From NCBI GenBank assembly GCA_040389205.1, contig JAZKAL010000010.1, positions 99,697 through 163,696 on the forward strand: a stretch of 64,000 nucleotides of DNA. Direction: 5' to 3'. The notes under the pieces were generated by a model. The model made no database searches. It saw nothing but the letters and a program-made list of their open reading frames with translations, and was not told the origin of the DNA. Position numbers and translations under genes: made by a program. The DNA comes from Bacteroidota bacterium (GTDB lineage Bacteria; Bacteroidota; Bacteroidia; Sphingobacteriales; Sphingobacteriaceae). How positions within the stretch are numbered: position 1 is the first letter of the stretch; each line of letters starts with the position of its first letter. Positions 3,525 through 6,498 of the stretch are shown in pieces.

Positions 3525-3746
3525 GGTTCAAATCCTATCAAACTAATTATAAAGGGACTAATTAATGTTCAAACACATTGCAATTTAGTTTCGACATTTG
3601 CAATTATGCGCTATATAATTTTGATTATTAAAAAAAATCAAAACATTATATCTTTTTTAAATGTTTTTCGTATAATTGAACTATGTAACAAACTAATAAT
3701 AATGTTACAGGAATTAACCCGATCTGTTCACTTAAATTTCAACACC

Positions 3747-4124
3747 ATGGCAAAAGCGTATCAGTCCATTTATGTAATGTTTTACAGGTGGAGCTTCAAA
3801 AATTTCGGTCAGGGCTCATTACCCCAATTTAAATCGTTGTTTAACGTTAGCTTTTTGCTGGTTGTGGTGTTAACAAACGCCATGCTGCTTACCAAACTTA
3901 TGGTAAATGCTAATTGGTTAACGATTAATATGTCGACTTACTTGGCTATATTATTTGGTGCGGTAGGCTTCCTGCTTTTAAACCATTTTATATTGTTAAA
4001 TAACCGCATGTTCAAAAAGTTAAATATGCGCCTGGCAACAATCAGCGCCCACAATAAAAACCTTTTTTCGATTGTATTATTGGTGAATGTATTGTTTGCC
4101 TGCAGCCTTTGTTTTATAAGATAA
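3747..4124 (+). CDS. Hypothetical membrane protein (about 3 TM segments); ATG at 3747 preferred to 3606
   Basis: Three hydrophobic stretches, followed by a terminator. The 5' extension of the ORF track entry is AT-rich and looks non-coding. Confidence 0.6.
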   Translation: MAKAYQSIYVMFYRWSFKNFGQGSLPQFKSLFNVSFLLVVVLTNAMLLTKLMVNANWLTINMSTYLAILFGAVGFLLLNHFILLNNRMFKKLNMRLATISAHNKNLFSIVLLVNVLFACSLCFIR

Positions 4125-4821: not shown

Positions 4822-6498
4822 ATGGAATTAATTGATTTATTAGCAAAAGGATATTTTCCCAAGGAACTTCCGCCTCCTTTTAATACGCAATCGCTTGCAA
4901 GTAAATATAATATCATTAAAGCAAGTCTTTTTGGCGCAATTGATAAGACACCAACCAGATGTGTAAACTTTTCTTATGCAAAAATTGGGATGGTACGAAA
5001 ATCAATAAAAATACCAAACCCAATGCATCAGATTGGTCTTTGCGAAGAAATTTCTAATAACTGGTCTCAAATTGAAGCAATTTATAAGTCATCAACAATT
5101 TCTTTTAGCAGACCTAAATTGAAAGGAGATAGAGCTGCAAACTTAAGTCAATTTAGAGATTTCAGTCGTAGAACATTTTTGGCATCGTATCCTTACACAT
5201 TTGAACTTAAAACAGATATTGCAAAATACTTTCCGTCTATATATACACACAGCATTCCTTGGGCGATTCATGGCAAAAGCGTTTCCAAAGCATCAAAGTA
5301 TGATAAAAGTCTATTGGGTAATAAATTGGACGCGTGTATTCAACAAACGATGTATGGACAGACAATAGGTTTACCTATTGGTCCAGATACCTCATTAATT
5401 GTATCTGAATTAATAGGTTGTGCTATAGACGCACAGTTATCTAAGGTTATTCCTGGTATAAAGGGATATAGATACGTAGATGACATGTACTTCTTTTTTA
5501 ATAGTTATGTCGAAGCAGAAAATGGATTTTTAGAGATTCAAAAAGCACTTAAAGAGTTTGAACTTCAAGTAAATGCAGAAAAAACTGTAATTAGAAAAAT
5601 TCCAAGAGGAACAGATAATGAATGGGTTATTAAACTTAGATCTTTTAGATTTCGCAAAACAGAAGGTAAACAATACAATGATATTATAAGTTTTTTTGAT
5701 ATGGCGTTTGGATTGTCTAATCAGTTACCGAATGAATACATCTTATCTTATGCGGTTTCAAGGATAAAAAATGTGCAGCCTATCTCAGATGAAAATTGGC
5801 TGCTACTCGAAACCATGTTACTAAAAACAATGGTTGCTGAACCAGCCACCATTAAAGAAGTCTTCCGAATATTTTATTCCCATCAGTCTAAGATAAGCGT
5901 TAAAAAAATAGAGAAAGTCTTATTTAATTTTTTGGAATATCACTGCCAAAGAGGGTGTGATTTTGAGGTGTCTTGGGGGCTATGGATGGCTAAAACATTT
6001 AATATATGTATTCCAGCTAAAACGAGTCTGGTTCTTTCCAATTTTGCCGACACCATATCTATACTAATTATCTTAGATATGATGAGCGTTGGGTTAATCC
6101 AAAAAGGAGATTTGGATATTGCCAAGTGGGAGGAAAAGCTGGACAAGCAATCTCTTTTGGATGAGAATTGGTTGTTTGCTTACGAAATTGCTGCCAAAAA
6201 ATGGATTGGCAGTTCTTATGATTATATAAATGAGGTGCCTTTTTTTAAAATCTTAAAAAAGAGTAAAATATCTTTTTATAATTCAGAATTACAAATTGAG
6301 CCGATTCAATTAACTAAACTAGCAAAAGCGGAAACTACAATTCCAGAGAGAGCTCAAGGCAATCCACTTTCTGATTACCAAGACTTTAAGGCGATAGAGC
6401 AAGCTGAAATTGTTTACGACATGGGAGAAGATGAAGTTGATATTGACTTTTTTGATGACTACCCACTTGATGATGATTATTATGACGAGTTTTATTAG
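4822..6498 (+). CDS. RNA-directed DNA polymerase family protein, class 1 UG/Abi (AbiK-like) reverse transcriptase with helical C-terminal domain; probable anti-phage defence protein
   Basis: RT motifs KTDIAKYFPSIYTHSIPW (Asp132), GLPIGPDTS, RYVDD (5473-5484) and LQVNAEKT, followed by a helical region with ENWLFAYE and FFKIL. AT-rich with AGA Arg codons, unlike its neighbours. Confidence 0.9.
   Translation: MELIDLLAKGYFPKELPPPFNTQSLASKYNIIKASLFGAIDKTPTRCVNFSYAKIGMVRKSIKIPNPMHQIGLCEEISNNWSQIEAIYKSSTISFSRPKLKGDRAANLSQFRDFSRRTFLASYPYTFELKTDIAKYFPSIYTHSIPWAIHGKSVSKASKYDKSLLGNKLDACIQQTMYGQTIGLPIGPDTSLIVSELIGCAIDAQLSKVIPGIKGYRYVDDMYFFFNSYVEAENGFLEIQKALKEFELQVNAEKTVIRKIPRGTDNEWVIKLRSFRFRKTEGKQYNDIISFFDMAFGLSNQLPNEYILSYAVSRIKNVQPISDENWLLLETMLLKTMVAEPATIKEVFRIFYSHQSKISVKKIEKVLFNFLEYHCQRGCDFEVSWGLWMAKTFNICIPAKTSLVLSNFADTISILIILDMMSVGLIQKGDLDIAKWEEKLDKQSLLDENWLFAYEIAAKKWIGSSYDYINEVPFFKILKKSKISFYNSELQIEPIQLTKLAKAETTIPERAQGNPLSDYQDFKAIEQAEIVYDMGEDEVDIDFFDDYPLDDDYYDEFY

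Follow-up and report, generated by a model that had tools for sequence, protein, structure and literature searches.

A conserved yet fast-evolving, tyrosine-tipped C-terminal tail in a DRT6-type reverse transcriptase: a candidate priming arm

An acidic, tyrosine-tipped tail

The stretch of DNA analysed here (64,000 nt of a Bacteroidota genome, assembly GCA_040389205.1, contig JAZKAL010000010.1, positions 99,697 to 163,696; called the window below) carries, at positions 4822-6498 of its plus strand, stop codon included, a gene for a 558-aa reverse transcriptase (RT)-like polymerase of the DRT6/UG12 type, within class 1 of the Abi/UG enzymes. Judged by comparison with its relatives, the acidic and aromatic tail that ends this protein (the window RT) is a non-random element of the DRT6-like clade, conserved yet fast-evolving and so far undescribed; our search of the literature returned nothing relevant on the acidic C-terminal region of DRT6, nor, by text, on its structure 9WY8. 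The role that we tentatively favour for the tail is that of a DNA-mimicking priming arm of a protein-primed, template-independent polymerase, by analogy with DRT9.

The last 26 residues of the window RT, DMGEDEVDIDFFDDYPLDDDYYDEFY (residues 533-558, positions 6418-6495, plus strand; 6418-6498, i.e. 78 nt and the stop codon), stand out by their composition. On recount they comprise 13 Asp or Glu, no Lys, Arg or His, 4 Tyr and 3 Phe, exactly as stated in an earlier reading of this DNA made from its letters (the sequence-only reading). With residue frequencies taken from the core of the protein itself, 13 or more acidic residues among 26 have a probability of 5e-7. When the entire 4.6-Mb genome was scanned, as the 1,015,605 segments of 26 aa contained in its 2,247 open reading frames (ORFs) of 250 aa or longer, only two, overlapping and both within the RT ORF, combined at least 13 Asp/Glu and at least seven aromatic residues with the absence of basic ones. 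An origin from a microsatellite or tandem repeat, or from simple AT bias, was considered and rejected: there is no tandem repeat in the DNA encoding the tail, the GC content of which (0.33) equals that of the coding sequence (0.34), and Lys, Asn and Ile, which AT-rich codons also specify, are rare or absent (no Lys, no Asn and one Ile).

As modelled by AlphaFold2 (AF2) from an 88-sequence alignment, the protein is well folded (mean predicted local distance difference test value, or pLDDT, of 90.6 overall; predicted template modelling score of 0.88), with residues 1-507 modelled above 90. The fold ends with an alpha-helical repeat (alphaRep) domain (residues ~281-486, positions 5662-6279, plus strand, as for all features of this gene), the helices of which are above 90 in pLDDT and superpose on those of DRT6, DRT4 and AbiK; its end is marked by Phe485-Tyr486, found in 115 of 115 relatives. 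Across the segment that follows, NSELQIEPIQLTKLAKAETTI (residues 487-507, positions 6280-6342), pLDDT drops from 86 to 51; on the basis of the model and of the alignment, this segment, with a short helix at 500-506, is the probable anchor of the tail. Beyond it pLDDT is below 50 over residues 508-558 (positions 6343-6495), with values of 35-42 in the tail proper. This agrees with the disordered linker proposed in the sequence-only reading, and the whole region is hereafter called the arm.

The window RT as a member of the DRT6/UG12 clade

The comparison protein was the validated DRT6 (UG12) of a Sphingopyxis sp. (PDB 9wy8; Mestre et al. 2022; Wang et al. 2025/2026), the RT part of which is identical to P0388 in our set of homologues. 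In the window RT the sole Pfam match is RVT_1 (PF00078, E 2.2e-8, 34.5 bits for a cut-off of 29.6), which covers the palm/fingers core (residues 129-258, positions 5206-5595) and includes the YVDD catalytic motif (residues 218-221, positions 5473-5484), whose two aspartates, D220 and D221, are kept by all of 115 homologues. The PADLOC Drt6 model PDLC03748 matched residues 2-510 over positions 3-497 of its 511 (E 4.5e-169, 561.6 bits), as against 281.8 bits for the Mestre-type Drt4/UG15 model; an older and broader 'Drt4' model scored level with Drt6 (564.9 bits), so that the PADLOC names are ambiguous by themselves. The best sequence match in the PDB was 9wy8 (E 4e-80), the DRT4/UG15 structures being far behind (E 5e-29), as were AbiK and Abi-P2. 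Foldseek likewise put 9wy8_A ('Cryo-EM structure of the hexameric DRT6') at rank 1 for the AF2 model, with a TM score of 0.94 and a root mean square deviation of 1.8 Å. In a FastTree phylogeny of 93 core domains, DRT4 was separated with 100% support and the validated DRT6 and the window RT fell on the same side, the latter in a subclade (95% support) forming the sister group of that of the validated DRT6 and lying outside it. Since profile, PDB, Foldseek and tree results agree, the window RT is, on sequence and modelled fold, a new member of the DRT6/UG12 clade of class 1 Abi/UG enzymes, with an activity assigned by analogy. Membership of DRT4 was rejected on three grounds: the NCBIfam Drt4 equivalog NF041749 gave 249.9 bits, below its cut-off of 450; the position of the DRT4 priming residue Tyr125 is occupied by Phe111; and the motif AExYCxYxxNPF of the DRT4 C-terminal domain (CTD) is absent.

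The window RT has 33% identity to the validated DRT6 in the superposition, its sister subclade being about 36% identical; both are single-gene class 1 Abi/UG RTs with an alphaRep domain, both have Phe at the Tyr125 position and both carry a long acidic and aromatic C-terminal tail, unresolved or unmodelled. They differ in that the DRT6 tail continues from its motif, DEEYFD, into a run of Asp and Glu that ends ...GDIFE, whereas that of the window RT, a protein known from its sequence alone, is shorter and has three terminal tyrosines, one of them the last residue. In the AF2 model of the validated DRT6, residues 495-533 are docked on the core (pLDDT 86-93), while DEEYFD is below 50 and the acidic extension is disordered. 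The docked segment of P0388, conserved in its aromatic and acidic residues (F501 and F529 invariant; F517, D518, I523 and F527 nearly so), forms two short strands and a helix. The 9wy8 chain has 495 modelled residues only, and its map may show the docked segment only in part. In cryo-electron microscopy maps of the E. coli DRT4, residues 507/508-540 are unresolved (PMC12783706; bioRxiv 10.64898/2026.10.21.760695).

Conservation and variation of the tail

The tail was compared in 115 full-length relatives of the window RT (36-65% identity), in a diverse set of 142 representatives clustered at 50% identity, and in a close subclade (at least 52% identity), from which 28 close relatives entered the tail alignment. 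Aligning homologues, as the sequence-only reading had proposed, revealed a tail that is neither absent nor random: it has recognizable motifs in the close subclade and is acidic in all relatives of the validated DRT6. Over the 115 relatives, the part that follows Phe485-Tyr486 varies from 19 to 113 aa in length and from +7 to -36 in net charge. In the close subclade, tails are acidic and aromatic, the 'Q-I-x-P-I' pattern of residues 487-507 is kept and three motifs recur. The first, a mid-tail E-T-E-Y-E, has its counterpart in Tyr519 of the window RT (LSDYQDF; positions 6376-6378) among the 28 aligned sequences; the next, (D/E)-I-x-Y-(D/E)-F, corresponds to Tyr532 (EIVYDMGEDE; positions 6415-6417); and the terminal consensus D-L-D-(I/F)-D-Y-(L/F)-x-Y is fitted by PLDDDYYDEFY, which holds Tyr553, Tyr554 and Tyr558 (positions 6463-6495). 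In farther relatives the tails are Gly-rich or basic (...TIVSGGGGGGSY, ...KKIVVVEY), many of them nothing more than a Gly-rich tether and a tyrosine (e.g. ...GGGGGGSY).

It is the tyrosine at the tip that persists most widely. A Tyr lies within the last three residues in 103 of the 115 relatives (90%) and in 74 of the 142 representatives (52%), and it is the very last residue in 48 of the latter; the corresponding background values among the long ORFs of this genome are 9.6% and 3.7%. The enrichment in the 142 representatives is highly significant (binomial p of 2e-37 for the last three residues and 1e-32 for the last one). Among the relatives the last residue is Tyr in 69 cases and Phe in 10, an imbalance which suggests that the hydroxyl matters. 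In the validated DRT6 subset, the tails of all 114 relatives are acidic (net charge -11 to -50) and the tyrosine of DEEYFD (Tyr536) is invariant (114/114), together with E535 and D538. Homology between this motif and the tail of the window RT was considered, the two sharing a D-(L/M)-D-x-(D/E)-Y-(L/F) look, yet phmmer sets Tyr536 of DRT6 opposite Glu538 of the window RT; the likeness is therefore treated as analogy only.

Along with this conservation goes rapid change, since the tree implies at least 14 changes in tail charge class and at least 27 in the class of the tip. Some tips are those of single-stranded DNA (ssDNA)-binding proteins (SSBs): NDDDDLPF, EADTDIPF, DDDDKLPF, EIYEIPF, DDLPF (twice) and EDLPF, those of the D-D-(I/L)-P-F type being carried by P0073, P0108, P0251, P0296, P0374 and L007. 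The last of these is a DRT6-like gene from another genus of the same family (G082:C17:25706-27220; 36% identity) whose product ends ...MSEDEDLPF, which resembles the DDLPF tip of the SSB encoded by the genome of the window. The tip of the window RT itself, DEFY, is not a canonical SSB tip and, as in most of its subclade, has no Pro-Phe. Five representatives (P0324, P0347, P0357, P0365 and P0379) share yet another end, ...(G/A)-(L/A)-(A/G/L)-P-(L/A)-F-S-(L/F/A/P), on a tail without Tyr; they may form a different class of C-terminal tip, in which Phe-Ser could supply a Ser hydroxyl. Phe-terminated ends, often ...E-(P/L)-x-F (AEEPEF, DDLPVF, EKLPF), were also found in 28 of 118 DRT4 relatives (P0121-P0240). 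By this comparison, SSB-tip-like ends occur in the DRT4 clade too, beyond the CTD of the E. coli protein.

A candidate priming arm

The argument for a priming role starts from a residue that is missing. DRT4 primes DNA synthesis on Tyr125, and its Y125F mutant is dead (PMC12783706). The Tyr125 column is Tyr in 118 of 118 DRT4 relatives, whereas the column aligned with it is Phe in 113 of 114 DRT6 relatives and, among the relatives of the window RT, Phe in 100 and Tyr in 11 of 115; in the window RT it is Phe111 (positions 5152-5154), as placed by the phmmer alignment to DRT4 structures. The validated DRT6 nevertheless carries out template-independent synthesis of protein-linked DNA (PMC12783706), and its primer must therefore lie elsewhere. 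No Tyr-rich column was found near Phe111, where the alignment could be off by a few residues, nor was there a conserved core Tyr specific to the clade: Y11, Y141, Y454 and Y486 are all common to DRT4, where they do not prime. Few of the DRT4 relatives (6 of 118) have a Tyr among their last three residues.

That the priming residue could move to the tail is in line with what is known of these enzymes. In class 1, priming sites vary in location (fingers in AbiK, palm in DRT4, linker in AbiA, an alphaRep helix in UG10) and sit on flexible or mobile elements (bioRxiv 10.64898/2026.02.16.706125). DRT9 primes from tyrosines located 2 and 4 residues before its C-terminus (...SLNYDYE), and its defence activity is lost when that end is tagged (PMC12483538). 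These residues of SenDRT9 (UG28), Tyr496 and Tyr498, resemble the tip of the window RT in several respects: a pair of tyrosines near the C-terminus, an acidic context, a flexible tail and a hexameric Abi/UG-type RT, the sequence itself being reminiscent of subclade ends such as ...DIDYLNYW and ...SEYDY and of the ...DDDYYDEFY of the window RT. DRT9 differs in being a class 2, non-coding RNA (ncRNA)-templated poly-dA polymerase without alphaRep, the tail of which was put at the active site by AlphaFold3 (AF3), whereas AF2 leaves that of the window RT undocked. With Tyr125 lost, no substitute in the core, mobile priming sites in the class and the DRT9 precedent, the tyrosine-tipped flexible tail is the best candidate primer in the clade.

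The arm could then work as follows. Anchored at the end of the alphaRep domain, polyanionic and free of bases, it would enter, as a mimic of ssDNA, the basic product channel of its own or of a neighbouring protomer of the hexamer, an entry for which its acidic run would be well suited. This would place Tyr553/554 or Tyr558 at the YVDD active site; the first nucleotide would be joined to the Tyr hydroxyl, the ssDNA product would remain covalently attached to the arm, and the growing DNA would drive the arm out of the channel. The part played by Tyr125 in DRT4 would thus fall to the arm in this clade. A comparable device is said to exist in phage phi29, where, as Kamtekar and colleagues reportedly found in 2006, the acidic priming domain of the terminal protein mimics DNA in the product cleft of the polymerase and offers the hydroxyl of Ser232. 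That terminal protein is, however, a separate folded protein serving a template-dependent family B polymerase and is unrelated in sequence to the window RT. In AF3 models of DRT4, the C-terminal region comes close to the DNA channel, at which bound phage SSB is placed, and models of low confidence also put the acidic tail of a phage SSB inside that channel (bioRxiv 10.64898/2026.10.21.760695). The priming tyrosine suggested in the sequence-only reading is in this way backed by the Tyr-to-Phe change at the Tyr125 position, by the enrichment of Tyr at the tip and by DRT9, the function itself being one that we infer from sequences.

A number of observations weigh against a priming arm. About a fifth of the 142 representatives (~18%, counted by eye) have no Tyr at all in the tail, and so do two closer relatives, P0062 and P0073. 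Where the tip Tyr is missing, the palm loop has no extra Tyr to make up for it, and the tail Tyr cannot therefore be the universal primer of the family; nor does Tyr at column 111 anticorrelate with a tip Tyr within the family, which lends no added support to a relocation of the priming site. The subclade of the validated DRT6 usually ends in Phe, Trp or Leu rather than Tyr. Deletion of the DRT4 CTD leaves DNA synthesis intact (bioRxiv 10.64898/2026.10.21.760695), so that the region in the equivalent position has a different, sensing role in DRT4. The equivalence of Tyr125 and Phe111 comes from an alignment at ~23% identity. In the AF2 prediction, made on the monomer only, the tail is undocked and confidence is not raised at its tip. 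Finally, a different priming residue may be named in the study of the DRT6 structure (Wang et al. 2025, BBRC 791:152955).

Other possible roles of the arm

The sensing role of the DRT4 CTD leads to the main rival explanation, which we favour only slightly less than priming and in which the arm is the counterpart of that domain: mimicking ssDNA or an SSB tail, it would bind the OB-fold (oligonucleotide/oligosaccharide-binding) or DNA-binding groove of a phage SSB, and this binding, together with that of the ssDNA made by the RT, would license an abortive-infection effector. The CTD of the E. coli DRT4/UG15 (residues 508-540) is flexible, begins at the same point past the alphaRep domain and binds directly to gp44, a phage SSB; defence and RNase activation depend on this domain, whereas synthesis does not (bioRxiv 10.64898/2026.10.21.760695). 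ORF55, a DNA-binding protein of phage, triggers DRT6 and DRT4 alike (PMC12783706). In P0121, which is 94% identical to the E. coli DRT4, the segment matching the SSB-contact residues (NNPFLEDEDEIVSFNDYMA) is acidic and aromatic and has no basic residue, like the arm; the CTD itself lies close to the DNA channel and to where the phage SSB is predicted to bind. Acidic tails that occupy DNA-binding grooves are well established, those of E. coli SSB, T7 gp2.5 and T4 gp32 doing so in their own proteins. Exact SSB tips are present in relatives of the window RT, and the fast turnover of tail charge and tip class (at least 14 and 27 changes) is what one would expect if the arm set specificity in an arms race. 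Sensing gives, however, no account of the missing priming residue. The arm shows no detectable homology to the conserved CTD motif AExYCxYxxNPF, DRT4 retains its palm Tyr125, many close relatives keep the tip Tyr on Gly-rich or basic tails unable to mimic DNA, and this host has no known phage.

As sensing is compatible with a priming role, both readings may hold. A single polyanionic arm would in that case do two jobs, as a DNA mimic in the product channel and as the donor of the priming Tyr; it would be a self-primed bait, its fast-evolving sequence tuning the phages that are sensed. We regard this combination, taken as a whole, as unlikely.

The likeness to SSB tails noted in the sequence-only reading has also been considered in terms of host partners. 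SSB tails (E. coli ...DFDDDIPF; T7 gp2.5 with its terminal Phe) are disordered, acidic and end in an aromatic residue with a free carboxylate, and some RTs of the family have literal D-D-(L/I)-P-F ends. The arm might thus imitate the tip of the host SSB and recruit SSB-interacting nucleases such as exonuclease I (ExoI, SbcB), which would trim constitutive ssDNA in uninfected cells until phage SSB-like tips compete during infection. DRT4 and DRT6 become toxic when sbcB is missing, and their product is broken down by ExoI (PMC12783706); this nuclease restrains the products of DRT4, DRT6 and DRT10 (PMC12783706; bioRxiv 10.64898/2026.04.29.721553). The binding of SbcB to the SSB C-terminal tip is known, and the phage trigger Bas52_0087 has FDDDIPF (bioRxiv 10.64898/2026.04.29.721553). 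The main SSB of the host has the tip DDLPF, and relatives of the window RT end in DDDDLPF, DTDIPF, DDDDKLPF, DDLPF or EDLPF. Such canonical tips are, however, a minority in the family, and the window RT, like most of its subclade, has an end without Pro-Phe (DEFY in its own case), with many more aromatic residues than an SSB tail and on a polymerase instead of an OB-fold protein. Recruitment therefore suits some relatives better than the window RT, for which we hold it to be improbable. The SSB likeness gains independent support from the relatives with true SSB tips, from the DDLPF of the host SSB and from the DRT4 CTD, which experiments showed to bind a phage SSB; the DEFY tip of the window RT is itself non-canonical. 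The genome has five genes of the SSB family (PF00436), at loci L001-L004 and at C9:377722-378024; the main one (L001, 1396-1818, minus strand) lies beside a mutY-like gene and encodes 140 aa ending ...NNDADDLPF.

It is just as improbable, to our mind, that the arm is passive or purely auto-inhibitory, a solubility or entropic bristle or a plug of the DNA channel that neither primes nor binds partners. Its predicted disorder and the wide variation in composition across the family are what a bristle would show, and the low-confidence AF3 models with acidic tails in the DRT4 channel (bioRxiv 10.64898/2026.10.21.760695) would fit a plug. Neither explains the D-x-D-Y-L-x-Y of the close subclade or the invariant E535, Y536 and D538 of the DRT6 relatives, which are far above background, nor the enrichment of Tyr at the tip (p of 2e-37). 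Of the three functions put forward in the sequence-only reading (priming, binding of SSB-related partners and auto-inhibition), the first two gain support from relatives and from related systems; all three are candidate functions for the window RT, and the comparative data do not choose among them.

To conclude on the arm, the kinds of function considered here are known ones, DRT9-type tail priming or DRT4-type SSB sensing; what appears new, from the sequences, is the presence of such a tail in the DRT6-like clade. DRT6 is a validated anti-phage system, and the analysis singles out in it one short and mutable element for priming and sensing: the whole clade is devoid of the DRT4 priming Tyr, and nearly all its members have Tyr-bearing or SSB-tip-like ends on a flexible tail. 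Should the arm prime, the fingers, palm, linker and alphaRep sites of class 1 Abi/UG enzymes would be joined by one more, and class 1 would be tied to DRT9. Should it instead or also bind SSBs or their partners, the two-factor SSB sensing recently described for DRT4 would be widened and defence enzymes would be seen to copy the universal SSB tip.

The gene and its surroundings

The GC content is 0.32-0.34 over the RT gene and 0.45-0.50 in its flanks. Of 151 genomes of the taxonomic family, 4 were found to have the gene, and the 7 other genomes of the genus lack it. The gene stands alone between a cupin gene on the opposite strand and a gene for a YifB/ComM-type Mg-chelatase-like ATPase; no search aimed at an ncRNA was made. 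Because of its low GC content, its patchy distribution and its neighbours, it looks like a horizontally acquired, single-gene defence enzyme. A scan for sigma-70-type promoters and for terminators gave results at chance level, the sigma-70 model being ill-suited to Bacteroidota. Just upstream of the cupin and RT genes, a 172-aa ORF with hydrophobic stretches (positions 3606-4124, plus strand) had no match in Pfam, NCBIfam or PADLOC; it too is low in GC (0.31-0.35) and may be part of the same acquired patch as the RT gene.

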